Source: an uncultured bacterium
Lineage (GTDB): Bacteria > Verrucomicrobiota > Verrucomicrobiia > Verrucomicrobiales > DEV007
Length of the DNA stretch: 64,000 nt
Reading direction: 5' to 3'
Assembly: GCA_963977015.1 (NCBI GenBank)
Contig: CAXBMO010000018.1
Coordinates: 32,001-96,000, forward strand
The notes below the pieces were generated by a model. That model ran no database searches. It worked only from the letters and a program-made list of their open reading frames with translations, and was not told where the DNA came from. A program made the translations under genes and the position numbers. Within the stretch, counting starts at the first letter, position 1; each line of letters begins with the position of its first letter. Shown here one piece after another: positions 31,962 to 50,324 of the stretch.

Positions 31962-33719
31962 CTACTTTTTGCTTGGAACCAGCATAGCCTTGATTTCTAT
32001 CACGGCCGTGTCACCAGGCGCGACCGTCTCCCACTGAGCCGCGTCGTTCTTTCTCCCATCGAACGCGAAGGCCGGCATCACTTCGTAGGTCGTACCATTC
32101 AGGATCACCTCCGGCCAGGAATATCCTTGACCAAGTTTCAGAAACTGGATGGTGTCGGGCGACGTCACCGGGTCGTTGCCTCGATCCAATTTGACCAGGA
32201 TTTTGAAACCGCTCTCCACAACTTCCGGGACCTCAAAATTGACATCGAAGTCCAGGTCGAACTGGTTAACTTCGGAGCGATCGATGGTAATACCGTTGTG
32301 ATAGCTGAAGGTTCCGATCACAAACGGTTCGCTGATATCACCGGAGAATGGCGCACCGGTTGACAATCCACCTTCGGCGATGACCGTGGGGGCCGCTTTT
32401 TCACCGCTCTCCAGGAAGGTGCTGTTCTTGGGCATCTTGGCGATGATTTCGTCATCCGGCAAATCAGCGCCCTCCAGCAATTTCTTGATCGTCGCGGGGT
32501 TGCTGCCGTCCACGCCGTCATAGTTGTTGCCGTGGCCGTTGTTGCTCTTCATTTTATACTTCCACTTGTTTCCATTCCCCGTGGGCTTTTTCATCTTGGT
32601 ATCGGTGTAGCCGGCAAGGGTCGGCGGCGCCGACGAGGAAGCGGGGCCGGAAATGTCCACTGAAGCCACGCTGCTCGCCAGGTATTTGCCCACGGAAGCC
32701 GAATTTGGAACGGCGCGCGCCATCACCGTTGCGCCGGAGGGATGGGCGGAAGCCAGGAGGGAAATCGCCCCCAAGTAGCTCTGCCACGCCCCCCCGTTGA
32801 TGGCGTATTCCACATCGCACACACCGGAGCTGTTCGGGTTGGCGACGATCACGTCCACGCTGACGGAAAGGCTCCCCAATGCCAGAGAGGAGGCGGTGAG
32901 CGTCGGCTCGACCAGCTGGATGAGCGGCAGACTCACCGTTTCCGAAGCCACGGAGCTGACGTCGAAGATCGCGGCGTAGGTCGGAAGCGGCGTGGCCCGG
33001 GCCAGGACTTCCACCGTGGAAGAATGGTCGAGAATGGATAGAGATAGCGCGCCGGTGTATTCCTGCCAGGTCGTGGCCGCATCGAGCGAGAGCTCAAGCA
33101 GGCATACGCCGGGATCATTGGGATTCGTCAAGTCGACGAGAGCGACCGGCGAGCTGTTCGGTAAATTGGAGATGCTTTGGCTGATCGAAGGGGTGTCCAG
33201 CGGAATCGAATCCGGTTCCACAATAACCAGCGGAGGCGATGGTGGTGGCGAAGGCACCGACGAGCCGCCACCGGATCCCGAACTGCCTCCCGATCCTCCG
33301 CCGTCGGATGAACTCCCTCCGTCCGATCCAACCTCTGAACCACCAAGCGAGACAACGGTGGGCACCGGAGGGGGAAGTGGGCTACTTTCCGGCATCGTGG
33401 AGGCCGCTTCATCAATCTGATGACCCCAGACCAATCGAACCGGTCGGGACAGGGAAGGCCCACCAGGCAGCGAATCCACGGCAGACATCTCCATCCCAAA
33501 TACGTAGGCCTGCTCCTCGGCGGAAAGGTAACTCAGCCCCTCGGCCAGTAGCCAGGCATCGTCAATGCAATCGCGGACCGGTGCACCACGGTCAATCGCA
33601 ATCAATTGCGCCAAAAAGGACGCCGATTCCGGGGAGTAGGTAATCTGGGCGGCGGATTGCGACACGAGGCCACAACTCACCATCAGTAGCGCAAACAGGG
33701 GTTTATGGAGGGGTTTCAT
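31962..33719 (-). CDS. Secreted surface/adhesin-like protein
   Basis: Signal peptide, Gly/Ser/Pro linker, two similar beta-rich repeats (NPN..GVC..E.....WQ.Y.GA), SNNGHGNNYDGVDGSNP motif, C-terminal FVIGTFSYHNG domain. Confidence 0.75.
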   Translation of the reverse strand: MKPLHKPLFALLMVSCGLVSQSAAQITYSPESASFLAQLIAIDRGAPVRDCIDDAWLLAEGLSYLSAEEQAYVFGMEMSAVDSLPGGPSLSRPVRLVWGHQIDEAASTMPESSPLPPPVPTVVSLGGSEVGSDGGSSSDGGGSGGSSGSGGGSSVPSPPPSPPLVIVEPDSIPLDTPSISQSISNLPNSSPVALVDLTNPNDPGVCLLELSLDAATTWQEYTGALSLSILDHSSTVEVLARATPLPTYAAIFDVSSVASETVSLPLIQLVEPTLTASSLALGSLSVSVDVIVANPNSSGVCDVEYAINGGAWQSYLGAISLLASAHPSGATVMARAVPNSASVGKYLASSVASVDISGPASSSAPPTLAGYTDTKMKKPTGNGNKWKYKMKSNNGHGNNYDGVDGSNPATIKKLLEGADLPDDEIIAKMPKNSTFLESGEKAAPTVIAEGGLSTGAPFSGDISEPFVIGTFSYHNGITIDRSEVNQFDLDFDVNFEVPEVVESGFKILVKLDRGNDPVTSPDTIQFLKLGQGYSWPEVILNGTTYEVMPAFAFDGRKNDAAQWETVAPGDTAVIEIKAMLVPSKK

Positions 33720-34690: not shown

Positions 34691-36361
34691 TCACGGGAGA
34701 GGATGAGAGCGATTCAGCTCCATCACTTTGAGCCGGATTTCTTCCAGCTTCGCGGCATCTTCGCGATTGGTCAGCGCCTCGTGGATGAATCCGGCGATCA
34801 ATTCCATTTCAGGCTCTTTCATCCCACGAGTCGTAACTGCAGGCGTTCCAATTCGAACACCTCCGCCTTTGAAGGGACTCTCTGTATCGAACGGAATGGA
34901 ATTCTTGTTCACGGTGATGCCGGCGTGATCCAACGCTTCCTGGGCGACTTTCCCATTCATACCGCTGGGGCGAAGATCCACCATGAAGAGGTGGTTCTGC
35001 GTTCCGCCGGAAATGATGCGATAGCCATGTCCCGCCAGTTTTTCAGCCAGGAACGAAGCGTTTTTGATGACCTGAGCCTGGTAATCCTTGAACCCGGGCT
35101 GCAACGCCTCGTGAAAACAGACTGCTTTGGCGGCAATCACGTGCATCAACGGTCCTCCTTGAACTCCGGGAAAGACCATCGCGTTGACCTTCTTGGCAAG
35201 ATCTTCATCATTCGTCAAAATCAGACCACCTCGCGGTCCGCGAAGGCTCTTGTGCGTCGTCGTCGTGACGAAATGCGCGTGCTCGATCGGGCTGGGGTGT
35301 ACGCCCGCCGCAACGAGACCGGCGATGTGCGCCATATCAACAAAGAGATACGCGCCGACGGAGTCCGCGATTTCGCGCATTCGGGGAAAATCGATGATCT
35401 TGGAATACGCACTCGCCCCCGCCGTGATCATCTTGGGCTGGTATTCCTTCGCAGCTACCGACAGTTGATCGTAATCAATTTCCTCGGTTTCCTTGGAAAC
35501 GCCATAGTGTTGAACCTCATAAAGTTTCCCGGAGAAGTTCGCAAAATGCCCGTGCGTCAGGTGACCGCCGTGGCTCAAATCCATCGTCAGAATCTTGTCG
35601 CCGGGCTCCAGAACGCTGAAGTAGACCGCTGCGTTTGCCTGCGAACCGCTGTGAGGCTGAACATTGGCGAATTTCGCGCTGAACAGCTGCTTGGCGCGTT
35701 CAATCGCCAAATCCTCAACCACGTCCACGTTCTCACAGCCTCCGTACCAGCGGCGTCCGGGGTATCCTTCGGCATACTTATTGGTCAAGACCGAACCTTG
35801 AGCCTGGCGAACGGCCGAACTGGCGAAGTTCTCACTGGCGATCAGCTCGATGTTGTCGGTCTGCCGGCGTCGTTCTGCCTTGATCGCGGCAAAAATTTCC
35901 GGATCAACCTGAGACAGGGACCTTCCGCTGATCTTGTCGACCCGGCGTTCGTGACGGCCGCCTTCAAAGGTGGTGGAAAGGTACTTTTCCAGAATCTCTT
36001 TGGCTTGTTCGAACGTCGTCTTCGCCCCGCTCAGGCAGATGACGTTGGAATCATTGTGCGAGCGCGAAAGCACCGCCATATCGACGTCGTAAACCTGGGC
36101 CGCACGCACATCCGCATACTTGTTCGCCGTAATGCAGACGCCGACTGCAGACGTGCAAACCAAGACCCCGAAGTCCGCATCCCCACTGTCGACCGCGTCC
36201 GCCACCGCATGGGCAAAATCCGGATAATCAACGGAATCGTTGCCATGGGTGCCGACATCACGCAAGTCGTGACCTCGCTCGGCTAACCAAGCGGCAAGTT
36301 GCTCTTTCAATTCGACTCCGCCGTGATCGGCGCCAATGACAATGCTAGGGCGATCGCTCAT
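34691..36361 (-). CDS. glyA: Fused ribose-5-phosphate isomerase B / serine hydroxymethyltransferase
   Basis: N-terminal [20 protein letters not shown] (RpiB); then [30 protein letters not shown] (SHMT), all in one frame. Confidence 0.95.
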
Positions 36362-38652: not shown

Positions 38653-39687
38653 TTAAACGGTGACGGGTTCGACAGCCGTGCCCGCCGGGTTGGGATTGGG
38701 ATCGATGAGGACGTTGTCGCCGTCGATGCGGAGACGAAAGGTGGGGATTTTTTCGGTGAAGGGCTCCGGCGAGGTGCCGTCTTCCGGCTTGTATTGGTAG
38801 CCGTGCCAGGGGCAGGTCAGGCAACCGTAGAGAAATTTTCCTTCGGCGAGGGGACCGTTCTGATGCTGGCAGACTCCGGAGACGGCGGAAACCTTGTTTC
38901 CCTCATACCTGAGAATCGCAACGCGCTCGCCGCCCACGGTCGCGCCAAAGGGGATGTTCTCCTCCAAGTCGCCAACTTTGCAGACCGCAACATAACCATC
39001 CTCGAGCACTTTGCGGTCGGGTTCGTGATCGAGGTCCTTCTGCTTCCACCCCGCATAAAGGTGCAGTCCAGAAACCAAGACGATGCCAATCCCGGTCAGG
39101 AACGCAAAAACGGGGTGCGTCTCGCTCTGGAGCACGCCGAAGGAAACGTGAATGATGAGCAGGGCATAGGCGACATAGACGCCCATGTGCAGGGCCTTCC
39201 AAATCGGCGCGGTGAGATTGGCCAACCAGAAATCGTGACTCGTCGCCGCCATGACGAAGAGGATGAGCAGGGCGAGGAAGCCGAAGGCTTGGAAGGGAAA
39301 ACTGGTGATGCTGGTCCCGGCATCGGTCACGAAAATGGAGACGATAGGGTTGATGTCCGAGTTGCCGTGGTAGAGCAAGGTGGCAAAGACAGAGTGGATC
39401 AGCGCAAGGAGGAACATGGTGACGCCGAGATGGCGCCGGTTGTAGAGAAGCGGGAGCCAGCGCTTGTCCAACCTCGCCATCGGCCCGATGATGAGGATGA
39501 AGTGGAGCAGGGTGATCGCAGCAACAGCAGTCGCGCGAATGAGGACGATGGGCGGAGATTCCCGGGGGTTCAGGGCGAGAGCAATGCCAATGAACGTGAC
39601 GAGAAACAGGACCACCGCGATGACGAGAATGACGTCATGCCGCTTTTTGAACGCATTCCAACCGATCGCCTGATAGGTGGCGCTCAT
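38653..39687 (-). CDS. Ferric-reductase-like (MsrQ-type heme b) TM domain fused to a Rieske [2Fe-2S] domain
   Basis: RRHLGV, LIHS, AATS, WKALH..VYVAY..IIH; CQHQNGPL and CPWHGY Rieske motifs. Confidence 0.88.
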   Translation of the reverse strand: MSATYQAIGWNAFKKRHDVILVIAVVLFLVTFIGIALALNPRESPPIVLIRATAVAAITLLHFILIIGPMARLDKRWLPLLYNRRHLGVTMFLLALIHSVFATLLYHGNSDINPIVSIFVTDAGTSITSFPFQAFGFLALLILFVMAATSHDFWLANLTAPIWKALHMGVYVAYALLIIHVSFGVLQSETHPVFAFLTGIGIVLVSGLHLYAGWKQKDLDHEPDRKVLEDGYVAVCKVGDLEENIPFGATVGGERVAILRYEGNKVSAVSGVCQHQNGPLAEGKFLYGCLTCPWHGYQYKPEDGTSPEPFTEKIPTFRLRIDGDNVLIDPNPNPAGTAVEPVTV

Positions 39688-39833
39688 TGCTCCGCTTGCG
39701 AGGGAGGTTCGGGCAGCGAATTATTCGTTGCGGGTTCTGGACGGTGCATGGTGGCGTAAATCAGGGCCAAGGCGGCGATCGCTCCAACAATGAGCCAAAG
39801 CAATCGGTGAAAACGGCGATGGGAAGTCTGCAT
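39684..39833 (-). CDS. Small membrane protein (49 aa, below the ORF-track cutoff)
   Basis: MQTSHRRFHRLLWLIVGAIAALALIYATMHRPEP...; its stop overlaps the next start as ATGA. Confidence 0.7.
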   Translation of the reverse strand: MQTSHRRFHRLLWLIVGAIAALALIYATMHRPEPATNNSLPEPPSQAEQ

Positions 39834-39841
39834 GGTGGGGG

Positions 39842-40090
39842 TTACTCAGAGGATTGACGATGTCGGGAGCGTTCTTCGGGAGGCTGCGCTCCGGTGATCC
39901 AGCGAATAAAGAGAAACGGCCAAAAAATCATGCACCCGGGAATGATCATCAGCTTAAAGCCCAACTTCCCGCCTGCGGCCGCGTGATCGATCCGTTTCAC
40001 GCCGAGGAAGACAAACAGAATGGCGAAGATCAGTCCAAAGCCAAGGTAGACGGCGAGGATACTGAGAAACATTTCGATTGCTAGCGACAT
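39842..40090 (-). CDS. Small two-TM membrane protein
   Basis: YLGFGLIFAILF...RIDHAA...IIPGCMIFWPFL. Confidence 0.75.
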   Translation of the reverse strand: MSLAIEMFLSILAVYLGFGLIFAILFVFLGVKRIDHAAAGGKLGFKLMIIPGCMIFWPFLFIRWITGAQPPEERSRHRQSSE

Positions 40091-40218
40091 CCTTCACCAG
40101 ACTAACTTCGCATCCGCCCTCACTTCAACCAAAGATGATCCGGAATGATCGCGGGCTGCATCCTGGCCGTTGCCGATTCTTTCGTTCCCACGGACGCATT
40201 TCACCGCGGGCCAGACTT

Positions 40219-40548
40219 CTAGTCCCGCCGGGATTCGGAAGTTTCCACGATTTCGACTTCCACCATCTTGATGCCGTCGTCATCCGCCACCTCATCAAGC
40301 TGGCTGACTTCCGTAATCGTCGCAATATGCTCACCAGAACCATTGCCGCTTTCTTTCCCGCGGAGGAGACGACGAACTCCCAAAGCGATTCCACTTGCCG
40401 TCGCCAAAACCAGTCCCGCAACCATAAAGAAGACCGCGAACATCGAGGCGAGAATCAACAGGCCAACCGCCACCGAAACGGCGAGCACTCCACCCAGAAT
40501 CATGGGGATGGGACCAATATTTCGAGAATCGAATTGATACACTTTCAT
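40219..40548 (-). CDS. Hypothetical membrane protein
   Basis: Long hydrophobic stretch and an acidic tail; start placed at MKVYQ. Confidence 0.65.
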   Translation of the reverse strand: MKVYQFDSRNIGPIPMILGGVLAVSVAVGLLILASMFAVFFMVAGLVLATASGIALGVRRLLRGKESGNGSGEHIATITEVSQLDEVADDDGIKMVEVEIVETSESRRD

Positions 40549-40623
40549 GGTAATCTCTATCAAACGCAGAAGTGCGGGAACGGCGATTACAAGAATTCGC
40601 GCGTTTTCTATCGCGTGTCTACG

Positions 40624-40863
40624 TTAGATCTCGCTCACAGGATCCCGTTCATTTGGGCGCCCGCATTGGGGACAGACGGGAAGCGGGACATCACTTCGGT
40701 CCTCGTAATGGCAACTGCAGACTTGGCAAACCACCTGAAACTTTCGCCGTTGGCGAGCCCGGCGCACTCTCACCATCTCCCCAATAATCCATATCAGAAA
40801 TACCCCACCTAGAATGAGGAACAGGTAGATCACAATGAGTTCCGAAAGGGTAACGTGAAACAT
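40624..40863 (-). CDS. Small TM + zinc-ribbon protein
   Basis: N-terminal TM helix, then CQVC...CPQCG. Confidence 0.75.
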   Translation of the reverse strand: MFHVTLSELIVIYLFLILGGVFLIWIIGEMVRVRRARQRRKFQVVCQVCSCHYEDRSDVPLPVCPQCGRPNERDPVSEI

Positions 40864-40879
40864 GAAATACGAATCGAAC

Positions 40880-41599
40880 TTACCAGATAATTTCGATCCA
40901 GTCCTGTTGCAACGCTTCTCCAGCCTCAAAACGCAACACATTGCGCAGAATCTGGGTTTCCGCCTCAGACAGTCCGCCCTCCGGTTCTTCAGAAACGAGC
41001 AAATACAACAGCCGCCCGTCCGCCTTTACCCCAGCCTGAGCACGAAGTCTTCCATTGGGTTGGCGCAGCGCTTTCGACAATGCTGCGTTATCAACATCGA
41101 GGTTCCGACTTGCCAATTTGGGCCCGAGGCGCACCTGGAGTTCGCCGGACTGCGGTTTTTCCCCCTGGTATCCCGTCCACTTGGACTCCGGGCGTGGGGG
41201 CAGATCCATCTTCCCGGGAGCCAGCAAGGTTGAAACGCCCATCTTGGCCGCCCCATCCACCGGGCGGAGCGAGATTTCGTGATTCTGGAAGGATGGGCGA
41301 AAGGAAACTCCTGAATTGGCCAACGAATACTGAGAAAGTTCGGTCGGAGTTCCCGGTCCATACGAAAACGCCCGATCTTCCAACTCGCGAAGCAGTTGAG
41401 CGGTATCAGGCTGGGAAGGATCGAGAATGACCACCCGCATCGGTTGCACGGAAATGCGCTCGGTTTCGGGATAGACCACCTGAAAAAAGTAAAACGCCGT
41501 AATATGAGCCAGAACGGCGACAGCGATGAAAAAGCTGAGTCTCCAGTTCCATTCCCGGGAATTTCCTCCCTTAAACAACAAGCCGACAGGAAAACTCAT
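40880..41599 (-). CDS. Single-TM protein, possibly TonB/TolA-like
   Basis: FFIAVAVLAHITAF TM with His; overlaps the exbD-like stop (ATGA). Confidence 0.6.
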   Translation of the reverse strand: MSFPVGLLFKGGNSREWNWRLSFFIAVAVLAHITAFYFFQVVYPETERISVQPMRVVILDPSQPDTAQLLRELEDRAFSYGPGTPTELSQYSLANSGVSFRPSFQNHEISLRPVDGAAKMGVSTLLAPGKMDLPPRPESKWTGYQGEKPQSGELQVRLGPKLASRNLDVDNAALSKALRQPNGRLRAQAGVKADGRLLYLLVSEEPEGGLSEAETQILRNVLRFEAGEALQQDWIEIIW

Positions 41600-42006
41600 C
41601 GGAACTGGGGTGCCTGAGTCGTGGCGTAAGCGATCTCCAAACCGTGCCGGTGGATAATGTTCGAAACCTTCATCACCAACCCGTGCGGCGCCATCTGATC
41701 AGCCCGGATGATGACGTGACGAATATTTGGCCCAGCCTCGTCCAGATAATCGCCCAGTTCCCCAAGCGTAACCTTGTGCTCGTTGAAGTAGAGTTCAGGA
41801 CTTGCTCCGGGCAAAATCGTGACCACGTGAGAAGCGTTGATCGGAGGGAGGCTTGCTTCCGATGAAGGGACCGTTACCGAAACTCCGGATTTGAGGACGA
41901 AGCTTGATCCAAGCAGGAAAAAGACCAACAGGAGCAACACGACATCCATGAGCGGAGCCGTGTAGAGAAATCCAGCGTTGTCTCTGAGCGAACTTTCCAG
42001 CTTCAT
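41596..42006 (-). CDS. exbD: ExbD/TolR-family protein
   Basis: APLMDVVLLLLVFFL with the conserved Asp; VIIRADQMAPHGLV. Confidence 0.88.
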   Translation of the reverse strand: MKLESSLRDNAGFLYTAPLMDVVLLLLVFFLLGSSFVLKSGVSVTVPSSEASLPPINASHVVTILPGASPELYFNEHKVTLGELGDYLDEAGPNIRHVIIRADQMAPHGLVMKVSNIIHRHGLEIAYATTQAPQFR

Positions 42007-42052
42007 TGCCGGATTCTAGGTTAAAGCTTGGGCTGGAGCAACTTTCCGTGCT

Positions 42053-42790
42053 TCAGCGTGTTTCGACCTTGCCATTGGGTTTGTCAGAACTGCCGGAGCC
42101 GTCACCGGCAGACGCCTCGGCTTCCAACTGTGCCTGCCGAAACTCGATGATATCGCTGCGATTATTGCGGCTGTCGTGAATGATGTTCACGATCTCGATA
42201 CCAGCGCGTTCCATGTCATGCATCAGGGTCCGGGCAAACGAGGAGAGATAGGCGTAAAACGTAAATGCAGGAATCGCCACCACCATGCCGACCGCCGAGG
42301 TGATCAAACTTTCATACAACCCACTCGAAATCTGCGCCGGTGTCGCATATCCGCTGTTTTCGCTGATTTGGATGAAAACGCGTAGCAGTCCGACAACCGT
42401 GCCCAGCAAACCAATCAGCGGCGCGACATAGGCAATGTTGCGAAGCACTGCGAGATTCTTCTCCAATTTGGGGACTTCCAATTGTCCGGCTTCCTCAACA
42501 ATCTGCCGGAGTTCTGCCCGGGGAAGCTCATTTCGCAAAATCGCAGCGTGCACCACTCGCGCCACCGGCCCCGGAGTCCCCGCACTCTCATGGATGGCCT
42601 CCGCGTAATTCCGATGCCTGATCAAATTCGCCAATCCATAGAGCAAGTCACTGACACTCACCCGCGACCGGTGAAACATCAGGTAGCGTTCCAGAAATAT
42701 TCCGATCGAAAAAATACTGCATCCTATCAAGAGCCAAACTAATGGCCCGCCTTCCCAGATGAGAGGTCCTTTGGTAACTGCAAATATCAT
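42053..42790 (-). CDS. exbB: MotA/TolQ/ExbB proton channel
   Basis: GGPLVW, APLIGLLGTVVG, ESLITSAVGMVVAIPA. Confidence 0.9.
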   Translation of the reverse strand: MIFAVTKGPLIWEGGPLVWLLIGCSIFSIGIFLERYLMFHRSRVSVSDLLYGLANLIRHRNYAEAIHESAGTPGPVARVVHAAILRNELPRAELRQIVEEAGQLEVPKLEKNLAVLRNIAYVAPLIGLLGTVVGLLRVFIQISENSGYATPAQISSGLYESLITSAVGMVVAIPAFTFYAYLSSFARTLMHDMERAGIEIVNIIHDSRNNRSDIIEFRQAQLEAEASAGDGSGSSDKPNGKVETR

Positions 42791-42913
42791 GTTTTAAGGT
42801 TGAGCGGCCTTGGTCTGGGAATACCAGTTGGCTGTTCCCTTGTAAAGAAGTCAGTCGCAAAAAGTTTAGACGAATCATTCCTGGGCTTCATCCAACTCAT
42901 TTCGCGCTCCCCC

Positions 42914-43435
42914 TTAATTGTATTGAAGAAACGGTCCTTCCGTGGACTCTGCTACCGCCTCATTTGGAGGCGAATACGTCGATCGGCTCCGCATAATTTG
43001 CCCAAGATGGCCCAGCATGCCCTCGGCGACCTGCTTCGCATGAAGGCGGACCACGCCAACCGCTACCCCGTCCCGAAATGCGGCCAACAACGCAAATTCA
43101 TCGCTGACGGGATGAACCAACAAATGACACTCCTCACCATGACACAGAACCTCGGGAGAAGAGGGCTCCCCCAACTGGCCGGCAATCATTTGCGTGGTCG
43201 CGAACAGTCCCGCAACCAACACGCCGAGCGAATCCGGATCGGGAGCAGCTTTCGCCGCATTCGGCTTCAATTCATTGACGATCACCGCCCCGCTGCGCTC
43301 AATCAGAGCAACCACTTCGCACTCGGTTCCTGCCAGAAAATTGCGCATCATCCCCCGAAACTCGCGTGCGGTTTCCGTGGTGATATTGAGATGATAGTCC
43401 CCGGATGAAGCCTGGACGTTACTAGCGCTTTCCAT
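42914..43435 (-). CDS. mglB: Roadblock/LC7 protein, MglB-like
   Basis: VALIERSGAVI, SLGVLVAGLFATTQMIA, VGVVRL; adjacent to mglA. Confidence 0.85.
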   Translation of the reverse strand: MESASNVQASSGDYHLNITTETAREFRGMMRNFLAGTECEVVALIERSGAVIVNELKPNAAKAAPDPDSLGVLVAGLFATTQMIAGQLGEPSSPEVLCHGEECHLLVHPVSDEFALLAAFRDGVAVGVVRLHAKQVAEGMLGHLGQIMRSRSTYSPPNEAVAESTEGPFLQYN

Positions 43436-43482
43436 TCTGTGTGCGTGAAATTTAATAGCGTCGCGCTGGAGACGCGACTCGG

Positions 43483-44145
43483 TCAGTGAGCGATGGCCGT
43501 CGCCGAATCGTCGGCGCTGGTCGATCCAGGCCGGATTGCGGGTTCTTCGTCACTTAATTCGTGAAATCGCCGGATCGTCTCCTGAGCAACCTCGTTCAAC
43601 GTAGCAAAGACATTGTAACCCTGAGATGCGACCGCCTCAAAAACAGGCACTGGCTTCTCGCGCTGATTCAGCACCAAATTCAGGTGATCAACCGCAACCG
43701 CGTCAGGAAGATCGCGCTTGTTGTATTGCAAAACAAAAGGGAGCTCATCCAGGGAAGAACCACCAGATTCCACGATGTTCTCCTCCATCGTCTTGAGAGC
43801 CTGAACGTTTTCCTCCAGCTTGTCCGCCGAAGAATCCGCCACAAAAACGAGACCATCAACACCTCGGAGCACCAACTGGCGGGTCGCATTGTAAGCCACC
43901 TGACCGGGCACCGTGTAGAGCTGAAATCTCGTGTGGTATCCCTGAATCAACACGGCATCGATCGGCAGATAATCGAAAAACACTGTCCGATCGGTGGAGG
44001 TCGCCATCGAAAGCAACTCACCCCGCTGATCATCTTCAATGCGGGAGTGAATGTATTGAAGGTTCGTCGTTTTCCCGCTGAACGCAGGTCCGCAGAAAAC
44101 GATTTTGAACTGAACTTCGCGAGTGTCGTGATTTACGAGAGCCAT
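43483..44145 (-). CDS. mglA: MglA-family small Ras-like GTPase
   Basis: GPAFSGKTTNL, DRTVFFD, LYTVPGQVAYNATR, VFVADS, QYNKRDL. Confidence 0.95.
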   Translation of the reverse strand: MALVNHDTREVQFKIVFCGPAFSGKTTNLQYIHSRIEDDQRGELLSMATSTDRTVFFDYLPIDAVLIQGYHTRFQLYTVPGQVAYNATRQLVLRGVDGLVFVADSSADKLEENVQALKTMEENIVESGGSSLDELPFVLQYNKRDLPDAVAVDHLNLVLNQREKPVPVFEAVASQGYNVFATLNEVAQETIRRFHELSDEEPAIRPGSTSADDSATAIAH

Positions 44146-44225
44146 TTTTCCAGTGCCCCTGATTATTAAGAGACGTATCTATTTAGGCGGATTTACCGAA
44201 GTTGCAAACACGAGTTGTAAAAATG

Positions 44226-46562
44226 TTAGGATCCCGATTCACAATCAATCAAGCGCTTGGCGCCTCGAATGATCAGCACCAGTTTCTCGCTCATTCCGGC
44301 CGGAAGACCGGCATCCTCATGAAGCACGCTAAGGCACAAATTGCCTTCGCTGTAGAAACTAATCACTCCGTGACTCGTATGAATCGTAAAGGCCTCACTC
44401 GTCTCAAAGCCCAGGTCGACAGCCAAGCCGGTAACCCGATCAAAAACGCGACACATGGTCTCGGGCAATTTCTCCTTGGCACGCTCAAGAGGCACTTTTT
44501 CACCAAAGATTCGGCATTCGCTATCGAACAGAACACAGCCCTCGATTCCCGGTAAATTGGCAGCCAATTCCGCGATTCGCTGCGGGGTGAACTGATCTTC
44601 AGTCCCAAACACCGCCCGCAATTCCAGATCCCGAGCCGGCGCTTGAAAGTCCAAGCCACCGAACCCCATGGCTCCATTCGCAGATCTTGCTCCGGCAGAA
44701 ACCTGCGGACGGGAGGCCACATTGCTGGTCTCTTCTGGCGCGACCACCGCAGCTTCACGCTCAACCTCGACGCTCTGTTCGGCGACAGGCTCGTCAAGTC
44801 CGTCAACATCAGGAACGAGATCTCCGCCCAAAACTTCAGCTTCGACCGGAGAAGGGCCTGAACTCTCCGTCACCATTTCTCCATACCCATCATCTGGCGA
44901 TCCATCTTCCTCTTCTGCTGTCGGAATCTCAATTTCCATCGGCGCTCCCAGGGCATCAAATTCACCCAATCCCTCATCCTGCCCTGACGCGGCAACCGAC
45001 TCCTCATCGAGCACAACTTCAGGAAAAGCTCCAATTTCTGATTCAACAGTATCCGCCTCCGCATCAACTTCGTCGGTGAAAACTTCGTCCTCAGGAGCAG
45101 GAACAACCTCCGGCACCTTTTTGGTTTGCAAAAAGGCCTTCATCATTTCAGCCGACTCATCGGCATCTTCCTCAGCCCTCACCGGCTCCGACGGAGTCGC
45201 GATCACCTCAGCGACGGTGGTGACGGCATCCTGACGAGCCCCCTCGGAGAACGGCGTCTCCATCGGTGGCGCATCAACCGGAGGCTTTGCCTGAGGCGGG
45301 CTCAAGGCATCCGCTGGAAGCTGTCGAAAAATGTCCTTCAACGGCAGCGCAACCTGAAGATTGGGATTGGCCGCAGCCAAGAATGGCTTGGAAGGCTGAT
45401 CCGCATATTGCATCAACTGCGCAACGGACAGACTGACTCTGCCTGATGAAAGCTGAGATTTCACCACCATGAGAGGAACCTTGATCCGTGCTGTCGGAGC
45501 AATAGACGCCGGCTCGATGCCCAAGGTGGAAGCATCCATCGGCATGAGAAGTTGAACCAACCCAAACAATAGAGCCGGTTCTCCAGTTGCCGTAACCGCC
45601 TTCTCAAGCTCCGGCTGAGGCTCGACCTCCAATTGCGGAGCAACCGCCTGATCACCAACCGGTTTTTGAGGAGAAAGATCAAATCGTTCCGTAATTCCGC
45701 CACCAGGCGCACCCGGCCCTGGACCAAACGAGGAAGGAGGAATCGTCGATTTCACAGCCGCGACCGGCACTGAGACCACCCCATCAACAGGAGCCTCACC
45801 AACGGCAGCCGCACCCGGCTTGGGATTCGCCACTTGAAACGGAGAAGCCTTCACCTGGTTTGGAGGCATTGCATTAAAAGGGGATCCATTCGCGCCTTGA
45901 GAAGGAACGGGCGGCGGGGTCATTTTGGGGCCCACGGTGGTCGCGGGTGTGTTCACGACCATAAACGGGCTTTCCGAAGCTGCGTCCGGTTTCCCAACGG
46001 CGACAGCATTCGCTGATGGGACTGGAACTTCGGCTTTTTGAGATGCCGCAATGGGAGCAAGTCGTTGCGGCAATTCAGGCTGCGCAACAGGAGCTTCCGC
46101 TGACGCTTCAACAGGCGTTTCCGGCATCGCCAATCGAATCGCAATATCGTTCGCTTCAGTAATCGGTTGCGAAAACAGATGTGGACAGGCGCTGTAGACC
46201 TTCCCCAGAGTTGTCGAGACAACCTGATTGATCGAGTCTTCTCCCGACGAAGGAATCTGCAAAGTGATCCGATGCTGCGGGGGAGCGACCGCTGAAAGAA
46301 GATGCGCAGGAATCGCCGCAACAAGCTCCTGGGCATCGAACGTAAGGGCTCGAACAGGCCCAGCCTCACTCACTTGAAACGGGGAAGGCATAACCGGAGA
46401 AACCCGACTTCCAACCGAACTCGGAGGCGCCGGGCTGAAAGGCAGCCCCCCGTGAGAATCAACCCCATTCCCTGAGAGGCTGCTTTGCGTTGCCGTTGGG
46501 ACATCAGGATGAGGCAAGCCATCTTCAGTTTTGCCAAAAAGATTTCGGAATGGGAAGGCCAT
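44226..46562 (-). CDS. Large Pro-rich/acidic protein with a C-terminal roadblock-like domain
   Basis: Start MAFPFRNLFGK; disordered Pro- and Asp/Glu-rich tracts; C-terminal LPGIEGCVLFDSECRIF...ISFY...LSVLH. Confidence 0.75.
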   Translation of the reverse strand: MAFPFRNLFGKTEDGLPHPDVPTATQSSLSGNGVDSHGGLPFSPAPPSSVGSRVSPVMPSPFQVSEAGPVRALTFDAQELVAAIPAHLLSAVAPPQHRITLQIPSSGEDSINQVVSTTLGKVYSACPHLFSQPITEANDIAIRLAMPETPVEASAEAPVAQPELPQRLAPIAASQKAEVPVPSANAVAVGKPDAASESPFMVVNTPATTVGPKMTPPPVPSQGANGSPFNAMPPNQVKASPFQVANPKPGAAAVGEAPVDGVVSVPVAAVKSTIPPSSFGPGPGAPGGGITERFDLSPQKPVGDQAVAPQLEVEPQPELEKAVTATGEPALLFGLVQLLMPMDASTLGIEPASIAPTARIKVPLMVVKSQLSSGRVSLSVAQLMQYADQPSKPFLAAANPNLQVALPLKDIFRQLPADALSPPQAKPPVDAPPMETPFSEGARQDAVTTVAEVIATPSEPVRAEEDADESAEMMKAFLQTKKVPEVVPAPEDEVFTDEVDAEADTVESEIGAFPEVVLDEESVAASGQDEGLGEFDALGAPMEIEIPTAEEEDGSPDDGYGEMVTESSGPSPVEAEVLGGDLVPDVDGLDEPVAEQSVEVEREAAVVAPEETSNVASRPQVSAGARSANGAMGFGGLDFQAPARDLELRAVFGTEDQFTPQRIAELAANLPGIEGCVLFDSECRIFGEKVPLERAKEKLPETMCRVFDRVTGLAVDLGFETSEAFTIHTSHGVISFYSEGNLCLSVLHEDAGLPAGMSEKLVLIIRGAKRLIDCESGS

Positions 46563-46627
46563 TGGGTTTGGGAATATTAATTTTGGGTCTCGCAAAAACG
46601 CAAAAAGGCGTTTGCTGACATTAGTAT

Positions 46628-46641
46628 TAAGGAAATCCTAA
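46628..46641. promoter_or_regulatory. Imperfect 14-bp palindrome upstream of the roadblock-mglA-mglB genes
   Basis: TAAGGAAATCCTAA, similar to TTAGGTTATCCTAA at 31817-31830. Confidence 0.4.
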
Positions 46642-46783
46642 TTTTTACAAGTGCTTAATTGCAATGGCAGCTTTGTTAGGAAACTGGGCAAGCAGAAGCC
46701 CCCGATTATCAGCCTTTTACTACCCGAACTTTTTTTTGCGCCCGCCAGCCCCACGGTGTTCCCGCACCCTGAAGTCAAACCAC

Positions 46784-48379
46784 TTATCGCCGAACCCAGG
46801 ACCGCGAAACCAATTGGTCGATGGTCAAATACGGACGTCCATTCTCAAATTCGTCCCATCGAAGCTGAACTTCACCAGCCAATGGATCTTCCTGCCAGGA
46901 GAGTTGCTCCACCATCCGTCGCCCGGCATCCGAATCTTTTGCCACGAATGCATAACGCGTGAACCCAGGATAAGGCGGATCGATCTTGTAGCAGACCAAG
47001 TTCTCAACGTCCGGAATCTGATCACGGTCGGACTCCCAATACGTCACGCGCTGAATGACGACGCGGAATGCTTGCGAGGTCTGATCACGCTCCTCAATAA
47101 ACTCCTGAAAGTGGCGATCCTTGAATTCGACAAAGAGATCCCAATCCAATCCCAGGGTTTGGTTTTCTTCCACCACGATCACCGGAAAACCATCTTGCTG
47201 ATTGGAAAACGTGAGAAAGAAAACATAAACCTTTCGCCCGCCGGGCCGGGGCTCGGTGTGAAAGTAGTCCAAGCGATAGTCCAAAAACGGAAGATCCACG
47301 TGGTTGGCATAATACTCAGCAACCTCTGCTCTCTGCTCATTGCCCTTGTGAATATAGGGAAGACGCGCCTCCCAGTTCTCACCTTCCAAAAATCCACGAA
47401 TCGCCCGTCGCGCCGGTTCCAGAATGGCATTCTGGTTGGCTTTCAACAGCGAGACTTTTTCATCAGCGGGCGCGGCAACCACTGCGGCATCACTCCCGGA
47501 GACAGGCCGCAACGGCTCATCGACTGGCGGCTCTTCCTCGACCGAGGCAGGCTTGGCTTCCGCGAGTTCCGTGGGCCGTTTGTCAGGAACGGGCTCAGAA
47601 ACAGGTTCAGGTTCAGCCGGAACTGTTTCGGAAACGCCCTCTTCGTGAGCAGGCTCAACCGCAATGTCAGGCGCGGTGGCAGGAGACATCACTTCTTCAG
47701 GAGCCGTTTGATAATCCAAGTCAGCTCCGCTTGAAGGCTCATTTGCCTGAATCTCAGGCGGATTGAGTCCGAGCAAATCTCGACTCCAAACCACATAACT
47801 CATCAATCCAATAATGGCGGCAGCCAGAGCGATCCATCCCAACGGCGAAGAACTCCCAGCCTTGGTCTTTGCCTTGCTGTAGGAAGGCAGGGGATCCACC
47901 ACTCCGGGAGACGGCAGTTGTTCGGCCGTCTGCGGCACGCCCAAATCACCACGCTGAGCAGGCGGGTTCGCAAGCGGAGGAAGCCCCGATGGCAGCGGAG
48001 GCATTCCCGGATTTGCAGAAGGAGCCGCAACTGGCGGAGTGGGATTTTCCGGTTGTGGGCCAGGATTCCCCACCAATCCTCCAACCCGGTTCGGAGTTGA
48101 AACCGGGCTTACCGGTGCAGGCTGGGGATCAGGAATCGGGACGGGGACGCGATCGGATTCAGGAGACGGCTGCACGGGTGATGGAGCCGGGCTTGGGGGA
48201 GCAACGGCGGCGGGAAACGGACTGACCGAATGATAAACCTGCGGCGCCTGAGGAGCAGTGATCGTCTCCCCACACGACGGACATGGCCCCGTTTCGCCGG
48301 CCAGCTCCCGGCTAACCTGCAGCGTAATTCCGCATGATGAACAGGAAAAGTTCAATATGTCCTGATTTGCAGGGTGCAT
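46784..48379 (-). CDS. Zinc-ribbon / Pro-rich linker / single-TM protein with an extracytoplasmic C-terminal domain
   Basis: CSSCG...CPSCG at the N-terminus; TM WIALAAAIIGLMSYVVW. Confidence 0.8.
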   Translation of the reverse strand: MHPANQDILNFSCSSCGITLQVSRELAGETGPCPSCGETITAPQAPQVYHSVSPFPAAVAPPSPAPSPVQPSPESDRVPVPIPDPQPAPVSPVSTPNRVGGLVGNPGPQPENPTPPVAAPSANPGMPPLPSGLPPLANPPAQRGDLGVPQTAEQLPSPGVVDPLPSYSKAKTKAGSSSPLGWIALAAAIIGLMSYVVWSRDLLGLNPPEIQANEPSSGADLDYQTAPEEVMSPATAPDIAVEPAHEEGVSETVPAEPEPVSEPVPDKRPTELAEAKPASVEEEPPVDEPLRPVSGSDAAVVAAPADEKVSLLKANQNAILEPARRAIRGFLEGENWEARLPYIHKGNEQRAEVAEYYANHVDLPFLDYRLDYFHTEPRPGGRKVYVFFLTFSNQQDGFPVIVVEENQTLGLDWDLFVEFKDRHFQEFIEERDQTSQAFRVVIQRVTYWESDRDQIPDVENLVCYKIDPPYPGFTRYAFVAKDSDAGRRMVEQLSWQEDPLAGEVQLRWDEFENGRPYLTIDQLVSRSWVRR

Positions 48380-48629
48380 CGATTTGGCGTGGGGTGGTGG
48401 GATTAATCGTTCAGGGCGAGATTGCGGTCTCTCAGTGCTTCGAGGGCATCAATAATCAGTTAACTCTAACTAAATATTCGCGTCAAGTAGTACCTTGTTA
48501 GGGCCTGACTGGTCCAAAAACATCGCGTTTTTGACCCCTTTTTGCTCGGAAACCTTCAGCAACATGGTTAACATCTTTCTGATCATTGTTGTTTTTTCCC
48601 TCCCCTCAACACCTACAAACACTACTTCC

Positions 48630-48887
48630 ATGAAATTGAAACGCTCAACCCTCCAACTCTTGGCGGTCGTTTTGGCTGCAATTACGCTGTCTTCATGTCA
48701 GTCCTACAGCTACGCTCATCGCGGAGCCGTCAACGGCGCACTTCTCGGTGCGGGACTCGGTGCTCTCATCGGTTCCGGCGGCGGAAACGCAGGCAAAGGT
48801 GCCTTGATCGGCGGACTCGCGGGCTCCCTCGGTGGCGCCGTGATTGGCAACCGCAAAGATGGTTACTACTACCGCGGCTACCGCTAA
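48630..48887 (+). CDS. Glycine-zipper lipoprotein
   Basis: Lipobox LSSC; GALLGAGLGALIG...GALIGGLAGSLGGAVIG. Confidence 0.85.
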   Translation: MKLKRSTLQLLAVVLAAITLSSCQSYSYAHRGAVNGALLGAGLGALIGSGGGNAGKGALIGGLAGSLGGAVIGNRKDGYYYRGYR

Positions 48888-49456
48888 GCTTCCGGCTCGC
48901 GAAATTTGGTTGAAATAGTCACGGTGCGACTCATTAGATCGTGCCATCCTCGATTTCTCGGATCGATCAGGATCCAGAGGAAGCCGATTCCCAATGGCAA
49001 TCCAATGAACCAGGCCATGATGCCTTCCGGCATGGTCCCGATCAGAAGTTGGCTCTCCATTCCCGGCCAAATCAGCTTGAACGGGATAATGGGCAACATC
49101 GCGACCACGTATCCCAAATAGCGGACAATCAGTCTCCCCCAACTCGGCCGTCCTCCTGTTTTCGAGTCCACGATTTTCAACTCGAAAATCCGCTTTCCCG
49201 GCGTCGTTTGCCAGTGGTGCCACATCGCGACGACGAGCGCAATCAAAGCCAGGTCGATCGGGATTTCAATCCACCACGGGATGCTCAAATCCCCTGTCCC
49301 ACCTTGATTCAGGACCCGCATTGAAAGCGGAACCAACGCGGCACACGCCACCATCATCACAATCGCCAGGTCGATCGAGTGGGCGATCAGGCGAATCCAG
49401 AAATTTGCCCCTTTGACCAGCGGCGGTTCTTCGGATTTTGATTCAGCGGCATCCAT
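48884..49456 (-). CDS. RDD-family membrane protein
   Basis: FWIRLIAHSID, TPGKRIFELKIVD, RGWHD. Confidence 0.9.
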   Translation of the reverse strand: MDAAESKSEEPPLVKGANFWIRLIAHSIDLAIVMMVACAALVPLSMRVLNQGGTGDLSIPWWIEIPIDLALIALVVAMWHHWQTTPGKRIFELKIVDSKTGGRPSWGRLIVRYLGYVVAMLPIIPFKLIWPGMESQLLIGTMPEGIMAWFIGLPLGIGFLWILIDPRNRGWHDLMSRTVTISTKFREPEA

Positions 49457-49520
49457 CCTCTCTCACCTACACAGGCCCATTCCGCGTTGCAAACTCGGTT
49501 TGTCGCGAAACAGTGAAGTC

Positions 49521-50324
49521 ATGACGGATGACCCCTTTGGCGTTGCGGACAAAACCTATGTGATCATTGGCGGGACAACGGGTCTGGGGCTGAGCGCCGC
49601 CAAAGCTCTCGCGAAGAACCGCGCCAACCTGGTCATCGTCGGTCGCTCCGAAGCGAATCTGGAATCCGCGCTCAACGATTTGGGCAAATCAGCCCGCGGA
49701 GAATCCGGCGATGCGACCCATCCGGAAACCGCGGCTCGTGCCATCGCCAAAGCCGTCGCCGAATTTGGCAAACTCGATGGCCTTTACCACGTTGCCGGCG
49801 GCTCGGGTCGCTCGAAAGGCGATGGCCCGCTTCACGAATTGACCGACGAAGGCTGGCAATTCACCTGCGATCTCAACCTCAGCTCGCTCATCTACGCGAA
49901 CCGCGCCGCGATTCGCCAATTCCGCGCCCAAAACTCCGGCGGCGTCGTTCTCAACATGGGAAGCGTGCTGGGCAACTCCCCTTCCCCATCCTATTTTGCC
50001 TCCCACGGTTACGCCGCGACCAAATCGGCGATTCTCGGCTTCTCCAAATCGATCGCCGCCTACTACGCGCCCCAGAATATTCGCGTCAACGTCATCACCC
50101 CCGCGCTCGTCGCCACACCGATGTCGGAACGCGCCCAAGGCAATCGCGAAATTCTCGACTTCGTCAAAACCAAGCAACCTCTCGATGGTGGGCGCATCGG
50201 CATTCCCGAAGATCTCGACGAAGCCGTGCTCTTTCTGCTCGGCGAACACTCCAACTTTGTCACCGGCCAGGTCCTCGCCGTTGATGGCGGCTGGACAGTC
50301 TCCGAAGGCCAGATCCCGACCTGA
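49521..50324 (+). CDS. Short-chain dehydrogenase/reductase
   Basis: GGTTGLG, YAATK, IRVNVITP, TGQVLAVDGG. Confidence 0.93.
   Translation: MTDDPFGVADKTYVIIGGTTGLGLSAAKALAKNRANLVIVGRSEANLESALNDLGKSARGESGDATHPETAARAIAKAVAEFGKLDGLYHVAGGSGRSKGDGPLHELTDEGWQFTCDLNLSSLIYANRAAIRQFRAQNSGGVVLNMGSVLGNSPSPSYFASHGYAATKSAILGFSKSIAAYYAPQNIRVNVITPALVATPMSERAQGNREILDFVKTKQPLDGGRIGIPEDLDEAVLFLLGEHSNFVTGQVLAVDGGWTVSEGQIPT

Follow-up and report, generated by a model that had tools for sequence, protein, structure and literature searches.

A phylum-wide Ton/Tol-like cassette with a putative zinc-ribbon subunit lies beside a g2-MglA-MglB GTPase module in an uncultured Verrucomicrobiales bacterium

The polarity GTPase MglA and its partner MglB act in Myxococcus xanthus on GltJ, a zinc-ribbon membrane protein of the Agl-Glt machinery. 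In the part of PMC11135422 used here, the zinc ribbon of GltJ is reported to bind MglB, and its linker to bind MglA-GTP. The same part of that article states that, outside Myxococcales, proteins with a zinc ribbon and a GYF domain (ZnR-GYF) are not correlated with mglAB operons. Herein, a stretch of 64,000 nucleotides (the window; positions 32,001 to 96,000 of contig CAXBMO010000018.1) from an uncultured bacterium of the Verrucomicrobiales was analyzed, in which mglA and mglB lie next to genes for a motor of the TolQ/R family. The nine genes of this locus, g1 to g9, are two conserved modules with genus-level flanks, and not one nine-gene system. Module A (g5-g8, 40624-42790) encodes ExbB, ExbD, a TonB/TolA-like transducer and a zinc-ribbon protein. 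Module B (42914-46562) consists of g2, mglA and mglB. What the data support better than a single system is a Ton/Tol-like cassette, uncharacterised and spread throughout the phylum, that includes a putative zinc-ribbon subunit and here adjoins a g2-MglA-MglB switch found class-wide.

A reading made earlier from the letters of the window (the sequence-only reading) had described nine co-oriented genes. All nine minus-strand open reading frames (ORFs) were confirmed from the ORF list and the translations, and the calls of MglA, MglB, ExbB, ExbD, Roadblock, the protein with a transmembrane (TM) His and the zinc ribbons were right. The features are as follows.

46784..48379, minus strand: g1, 531 aa, comprising an N-terminal zinc ribbon, a linker rich in Pro, a single TM helix and a C-terminal domain of 211 aa
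44226..46595, minus strand: g2, 789-aa Roadblock-ended scaffold, likely start at 46562
43483..44145, minus strand: g3, MglA, a small Ras-like GTPase with group 1 features
42914..43435, minus strand: g4, MglB, the Roadblock-type GTPase-activating protein (GAP) partner of MglA
42818..42846, minus strand: promoter-like element, TTTACA-N17-TATTCC with TG before the second hexamer, of putative function
42053..42790, minus strand: g5, proton-channel subunit of the ExbB/TolQ/MotA family
41596..42006, minus strand: g6, subunit of the ExbD/TolR family with transmembrane Asp21
40880..41599, minus strand: g7, divergent TonB/TolA-like transducer
40624..40863, minus strand: g8 (Zn105), 79 aa, anchored by an N-terminal TM helix, with the zinc ribbon on the cytoplasmic side
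40219..40563, minus strand: g9, small membrane protein of 114 aa, a genus-level neighbour only

The intergenic gaps from g1 to g9 are 188, 80, 47, 123, 46, -4, about 16 and 60 bp. The mglB gene begins 47 bp downstream of mglA, and the start of g7 overlaps the exbD stop by 4 nt. The largest gap within the conserved block is between mglB and exbB, with 123 bp in the window and 31-180 bp across the linked loci. The source assembly has 6.9 Mb in 51 contigs, and its nearest public relatives are metagenome-assembled genomes (MAGs) of uncultured Verrucomicrobiales. The genes g2, mglA, mglB, g7 and g8 are each single-copy in this genome. A search of sequencing runs gave DNA runs, labelled marine metagenome or with a coded organism name, and no RNA.

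The analogy with Agl-Glt drawn by the sequence-only reading is legitimate. Both systems include a group-1-type MglA with an intrinsic Arg and a catalytic Gln, and an MglB that is a Roadblock GAP. Both also include a TolQ/R-family motor (AglRQS in M. xanthus), a TonB-like single-pass protein (GltG and GltJ in M. xanthus) and a zinc ribbon on the cytoplasmic side of the membrane. In contrast to Agl-Glt, the zinc ribbon here is on a separate 79-aa protein and not on the TonB-like protein, one ExbD is present instead of AglQ and AglS, and the cassette occurs without MglA in most of the phylum. The mglBA genes of M. xanthus are not known to be adjacent to the motor genes. Pfam scans, which covered the cluster proteins only, found no GYF domain or other Pfam family in g1, g2, g7 or g8. 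Another close relative is the MglA/MglB pair of Thermus thermophilus, which provides the closest solved MglA structure and a profile match to MglB. Unlike in T. thermophilus, a large Roadblock-ended g2 always precedes mglA here, giving the order g2-mglA-mglB. A 2025 survey of periplasmic force transducers assigned vWA-type transducers to bacteria of the Planctomycetes-Verrucomicrobia-Chlamydiae (PVC) group in the part used here, and the word "zinc" is absent from its main text (PMC12204202). A full-text literature search, with sources available in part, found no publication on an MglA/MglB-ExbB cluster, on an ExbB/ExbD-zinc-ribbon cluster or on the zinc-ribbon subunit of the cassette.

The channel subunit g5 matched PF01618 with 99.8 bits (cut-off 22.9). 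Its scores were far below the cut-offs of the TolQ equivalog TIGR02796 (84.8 versus 221 bits) and of ExbB TIGR02797 (52.9 versus 206.2 bits), and its best sequence match in the PDB was TolQ (E 1.8e-9). When a hidden Markov model of the cassette ExbB was built, g5 scored 380 bits and 13 paralogues scored at most 112 bits. The g6 protein matched PF02472 with 54.6 bits (cut-off 25.4). The TM Asp of ExbD (Asp21 in g6) is conserved in 26 of 30 orthologues; the other 4 have Asn.

In g7, a short cytoplasmic N-terminus that carries an invariant Phe9 is followed by a single TM helix containing His32, then by a linker and the C-terminal domain at about residues 155-239. The TM His is kept in 19/22 orthologues. 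TonB carries an SHLS motif at this place, of which only the His is evident in g7. No Pfam family (TonB_C, TonB_2) or NCBIfam family was matched by g7, and profile matches to TolA III and to the TonB C-terminal domain (CTD) were found only at E of about 0.4. The C-terminal domain of g7 is nevertheless predicted to have a TonB-CTD-like fold. The AlphaFold2 (AF2) model of this domain has a predicted local distance difference test (pLDDT) of 80-93, and CTDs of the TonB family fill the first 12 places in Foldseek (E 0.04-0.13, probability up to 0.96). Comparison via VIA gave TonB/TolA/HasB-type CTDs in all of the 20 best rows (Z 6.1-3.6, root-mean-square deviation 2.5-4.7 A), with unrelated rows at Z of 3.6 or less. 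Judged by its conserved positions, the cassette has the residues expected of a working motor. As a separate observation, Asn replaces Asp in the ExbD of L036, L040, L041 and L043 (families f5 and f7), which are exactly the loci whose g7 is without the TM His. The joint absence of both residues suggests a joint loss or a change of proton coupling.

In the fourth cassette protein, g8, the N-terminal TM helix leads through a basic stretch into a ribbon of the pattern CxxC-x14-CPxCG-xxNER. The four Cys are invariant in 22 orthologues. The most likely start of g8 is at 40863, where the orthologue alignments begin, and this start gives the 79-aa protein. The promoter-like element lies 27 nt 5' of the exbB ATG, inside the mglB-exbB spacer. 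When seven mglB-exbB spacers were aligned, it was seen in the window and in L001 and L002, and could still be recognised in L003 and L073. A consensus scanner did not call this element, and the counts of a promoter and terminator consensus scan of 39700-49600 were at or below the shuffled expectation.

The distribution of the cassette was determined with the g8 profile. Matches were found in 38/41 genomes of the order and in about four fifths of the phylum genomes (206/251), including 18 of 20 sampled genomes of genus g23, which have 2-3 Mb. In Planctomycetota, a full-length match was present in about 6 of 121 genomes. Among the 12 order genomes without an MglA match, g8 is kept in 10, and the loci there read ExbB-ExbD-g7-g8. 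Of 20 loci taken from across the phylum around g8, 16 have ExbB and ExbD next to it. The g7 model matched 10 of the 20, and the other six ExbB/ExbD loci have a gap of 0.4-0.8 kb between exbD and g8. Throughout the phylum g8 comes after g7, and the two ORFs often overlap or nearly abut. Roadblock proteins were considered as an explanation of the spread of g8 and rejected; Roadblock PF03259 was found in only 16/251 phylum genomes, at a threshold that misses the window's own MglB.

Pfam scanning of g3 gave Arf/Ras matches. The best solved-structure match is MglA of T. thermophilus (3t12_A), with 214 bits over residues 1-193, and the MglA chains of M. xanthus scored 204 bits. The G3 motif of group 1 MglA reads TxPGQ with a catalytic Gln. 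Within 15 aligned orthologues of g3, the motifs GxxxxGKT (G19..G24-K25-T26), R53-T54, T78-V-P-G-Q82 and N142-K-R-D145 are invariant. Arg53 is next to the G2 threonine T54 in 15/15 orthologues, which is the arrangement given for group 1 in the 2014 survey of Wuichet and Sogaard-Andersen, where an intrinsic arginine finger adjoins the conserved G2 threonine (PMC4316618, in the part used here). The same part of that source gives a GTPGQ G3 motif for groups 2-5 and lists Verrucomicrobia only under group 5. The g4 profile matched MglB of M. xanthus (6hjm_A) at E 3.2e-24 and MglB of T. thermophilus at E 1.3e-21. Its scores are below the curated cut-offs of Pfam Roadblock (17.8 versus 23 bits) and NCBIfam MglB (44 versus 200 bits).

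No Pfam match was obtained for g2. The most likely start is Met12 at 46562, where the conserved N-terminus MxFxFxxLFxK begins. An AF2 model built with 29 orthologues shows three confident domains. The C-terminal domain (about 650-789) has a Roadblock/LC7 fold in this model, with a Foldseek E of 2.5e-5, and VIA gave Z 14.1 to an Asgard Roadblock protein and Z 12.6 to M. xanthus MglB. Robl_LC7 was called by Pfam in 6 of the 29 orthologues, and otherwise no family was found, D1 and D2 included. These two domains, D1 (about 80-160; window about 46116-46385) and D2 (about 335-435; window 45300-45584), are copies of one non-Pfam domain of about 95 aa, and Pro-rich disordered linkers lie between the domains. 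A BLASTP comparison of D1 with D2 was not significant (E 0.32). The D2 profile matched 803 cluster representatives at E of 0.001 or less, most with two matched stretches. An Atlas search with D1 and D2 found only unnamed Verrucomicrobiota clusters, and the whole-model fold searches of g2 were filled by Roadblock matches. Among 50 D2-family proteins, Pfam found one REC, one DUF4267 and one Robl domain. One member of this family, P0001 with 2283 aa, has a receiver domain followed by seven copies of the D2-type domain.

The gene g2 is immediately 5' of mglA in 34/34 distinct Verrucomicrobial MglA loci. Class-wide, g2 is directly before mglA in 50/60 loci, and mglB follows mglA in 55/60. MglA itself was found in 29/41 genomes of the order, 160/401 of the class and 14/251 of the phylum. 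Four genes of the source genome score above the PilT-family cut-off, and type IV pili are thus an alternative target for MglA.

The linkage of the two modules was then compared among loci. In the order, the cassette is directly downstream of MglA on the same strand in 15 of 27 MglA loci and outside the fetched flank in 12; all 12 genomes with unlinked loci have a g8 match elsewhere. Four of six further MAG loci are linked. The 60 class-wide MglA loci were chosen to spread over families, with a flank of 5.6-7.1 kb (only 1.8 kb in one locus). The cassette is co-oriented in two of them (L104 and L105), convergent in two (L112 and L113) and absent in 56. The convergent arrangement belongs to family f15, where it is found in L048, L112 and L113. 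In a FastTree phylogeny, the linked, convergent and g2-only states are all confined to a single sub-clade of the cassette ExbB, comprising the order and a few sister lineages, with unlinked lineages interspersed. This pattern suggests one origin of the linkage and then many separations. The sequence-only reading had made its proposal depend on exbBD being linked with mglAB in most relatives; outside this one sub-clade the linkage is largely missing (56/60 and 12/27 loci unlinked), and g8 is found in 206/251 phylum genomes versus 14/251 for MglA.

The gene fabF, which encodes beta-ketoacyl-ACP synthase II, was used as a control for synteny. In 21/44 cassette loci it is found no more than 1.5 kb downstream of g8, and g2/MglA/MglB lie upstream of the cassette in 21/46. 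Synteny with the cassette is equal for fabF and the MglA module; synteny alone is therefore not proof of co-function. Examples of fabF are found at L003:13404-14708, L037:6239-7549 and L045:10278-11567; in the window itself, g9 and not fabF is directly 3' of g8. As a further observation, a second ExbB-ExbD-ExbD set is located a few genes upstream of g2 in L004:8556-10381, L005:13566-15393 and L013:2684-4616. The ExbB of this set is orthologous to the copy at C1:592531-593313 of the source genome.

The gene content, folds, distribution, phylogeny and synteny described above are consistent with two self-standing conserved modules whose adjacency arose in an ancestor shared by Verrucomicrobiales with a few sister lineages, flanked by the unrelated g1 and g9. 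We consider this explanation somewhat better than even. Module A would be a vertically inherited, Verrucomicrobiota-wide transducer of the proton-motive force (PMF). An ExbB-type pentameric channel and ExbD with its TM Asp would energise the g7 arm, with its TM His, linker and TonB-CTD fold, and this arm would reach an envelope partner. The g8 protein would be a fourth, cytoplasm-facing accessory subunit. Module B would be a polarity switch built on a GTPase as in M. xanthus and T. thermophilus, found class-wide and provided with its own Roadblock-ended scaffold, g2. The modules may be co-transcribed in this genome, and MglA may modulate the motor. The cassette has its own promoter-like element and would work without MglA in most of the phylum. 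Assembly of the cassette proteins into a complex, use of the PMF and any regulation of the cassette by MglA are what we infer from these data. The lineage-limited linkage and the fabF control leave functional coupling of modules A and B plausible and not demonstrated, and we lean against it.

Several results weigh against two independent modules and favour an integrated machine, in which the ExbBD/TonB-like/zinc-ribbon motor would be recruited or switched, at a pole or a site of division, by MglA-GTP and MglB acting via g2, with g7 and g8 as a split analogue of GltJ (cytoplasmic zinc ribbon plus envelope-spanning arm). The precedent is the action of MglA-GTP and MglB on GltJ, through linker and ribbon, in the part of PMC11135422 cited above. 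Where the modules are linked, the seven genes stay closely spaced and on one strand even between deeply diverged genomes, as in the 15/27 order loci, the 4/6 further MAG loci and L104/L105 outside the order. At L025 and L026, no mglB lies between, MglA identity is 40-41%, and the mglA-exbB gaps are 48-90 bp. A g2-like Roadblock gene is located 12-93 bp 5' of exbB or of mglB-exbB in L028, L029, L031 and L050, four genomes where MglA has been lost from the locus, which hints at a tie between g2 and the cassette. A second MglA/Tol neighbourhood exists in MAGs of the Acidobacteriota/Aminicenantes type, where tolQ-tolR-tolA(TonB_2)-tolB-pal-cpoB(TPR_6)-ssb-mglA was found at L084:2958-9071 and at L086, L089, L092 and L096, with a partial copy at L088. 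The five TolQ are closely related and count as one lineage. The MglA of these loci has 356 aa with a C-terminal extension. The data themselves also limit the preferred reading: the trees are quick IQ-TREE and FastTree builds only, and the loci behind the fabF control and the linkage counts were partly picked for having MglA. Nevertheless, the cassette occurs without MglA in most of the phylum, the MglA loci are largely unlinked class-wide and in 12/27 order loci whose genomes keep the cassette elsewhere, family f15 has the convergent arrangement, and the unrelated fabF is equally syntenic. One clade of origin followed by many separations, and the cassette's own promoter-like element, also argue against an integrated machine, and we regard it as a tentative and rather unlikely alternative. 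The claim that MglA/MglB in Verrucomicrobiales and sister lineages are wired via g2 to a Ton/Tol-like motor with a split GltJ counterpart is likewise doubtful. The single GTPase-positioned system of the sequence-only reading is therefore possible, with support that goes no further than lineage-limited synteny. Complex prediction of MglA with two MglB and g8 residues 28-79 gave a score of 0.00, which is no verdict either way.

The cassette alone could also be assigned to one of the two classical systems. As the Tol system of this lineage, it would serve outer-membrane integrity and constriction, with g7 as TolA and TolB/Pal encoded elsewhere. The closest named matches of g5, both in NCBIfam and among PDB sequences, are TolQ, and the C-domain of g7 also aligns to TolA III. 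Its distribution is housekeeping-like and near-universal in the phylum, and includes G126, a 0.9-Mb genome of the class without TonB-dependent receptor (PF00593) matches. However, the source genome has a better TolQ candidate on C46, which scored 133.6 bits to the TolQ model, above g5; ExbD and a TonB_2 protein are encoded after it. The C46 ExbB groups, in a quick maximum-likelihood tree, with the TolQ of true tolQRA-tolB-pal operons (support 95), and the 49 cassette ExbB are on one side of a branch with an SH-like approximate likelihood ratio test (SH-aLRT) value of 88. A TolB-like propeller and an OmpA/Pal-like protein are encoded together on C4, and no TolB-like, Pal-like or CpoB gene adjoins the cassette in any locus examined. 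G126 keeps a second ExbB-family gene as well, with two PF01618 genes of which one is in the cassette. A Tol assignment is improbable on these grounds. As an ordinary ExbB-ExbD-TonB uptake energiser, with the zinc-ribbon gene as an unrelated small neighbour, the cassette would fit in its gene order, its PF01618 and PF02472 matches, its ExbD TM Asp and transducer TM His, and the TonB CTDs that are the best fold matches of g7. Unlike that system, g7 is without a TonB_C or TonB_2 sequence match, the ExbB forms a separate clade, and an extra zinc-ribbon subunit is encoded, whose gene follows g7 closely across the phylum. The cassette is kept in G126, where no TonB-dependent receptor was detected by PF00593, and two of the four PF00593 genes of the source genome adjoin TonB_C proteins other than g7, on C1 and C41. 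We consider the uptake assignment very improbable. The sequence-only reading had named grouping with ordinary TonB uptake systems as an outcome that would speak against it; exbBD instead falls in its own clade, apart from TolQ too. This clade, the separate C46/C4 Tol set and G126 indicate that the cassette is not the canonical Tol set and not an energiser of classical uptake either. In a related observation, the source genome (G000) has 18 MotA/ExbB-family (PF01618) matches versus 4 TonB-dependent receptor barrels and 3 TonB_C domains. This excess of motors over receptors indicates that most of its ExbB-type motors cannot serve classical TonB uptake.

Coupled or not, the four genes of the cassette seem to represent a so far unstudied kind of Ton/Tol-like transducer beside the classical Ton and Tol systems. 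If the two modules were coupled, the control of TolQ/R-family motors in space by MglA-type switches would be old and portable as a design, and not a myxobacterial speciality, and PVC bacteria would gain a tractable polarity system. If the motor were wired through g2, this would be the first GTPase-positioned, PMF-driven envelope machine outside Myxococcota/Bdellovibrionota, and it could drive polar surface motility, or prostheca or division-site envelope work.

The flanking genes were compared by tblastn. The g1 protein has an N-terminal CxxC..CxxC ribbon with weak matches to Zn_ribbon_8 and FmdB (E 0.03 and 0.015), and lies beside the cluster only in L001-L003 (3/27 order loci). The best homologues of its C-terminal domain in other genera are on contigs other than the MglA contig. 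The g9 protein has no Pfam or NCBIfam family match, and its sole tblastn match is in L002 (1/27 order loci). Linkage of g1 and g9 to the cluster does not reach beyond the genus and one or two of its close relatives, and neither gene is thus a member of a conserved system.

Other features of the window were also recorded. The 211-aa C-terminal domain of g1 (window 46784-47419) belongs to a multi-copy family, with up to 14 copies per Verrucomicrobiales genome in proteins of 230 to about 1500 aa. At 38653-39687 on the minus strand, a 344-aa ORF combines a ferric-reductase-like TM domain with a Rieske [2Fe-2S] domain. At 34691-36361, also on the minus strand, a 556-aa ORF has a translation whose first approximately 145 residues we take to be an RpiB/LacA-type sugar-phosphate isomerase-like domain, presumably fused to serine hydroxymethyltransferase.

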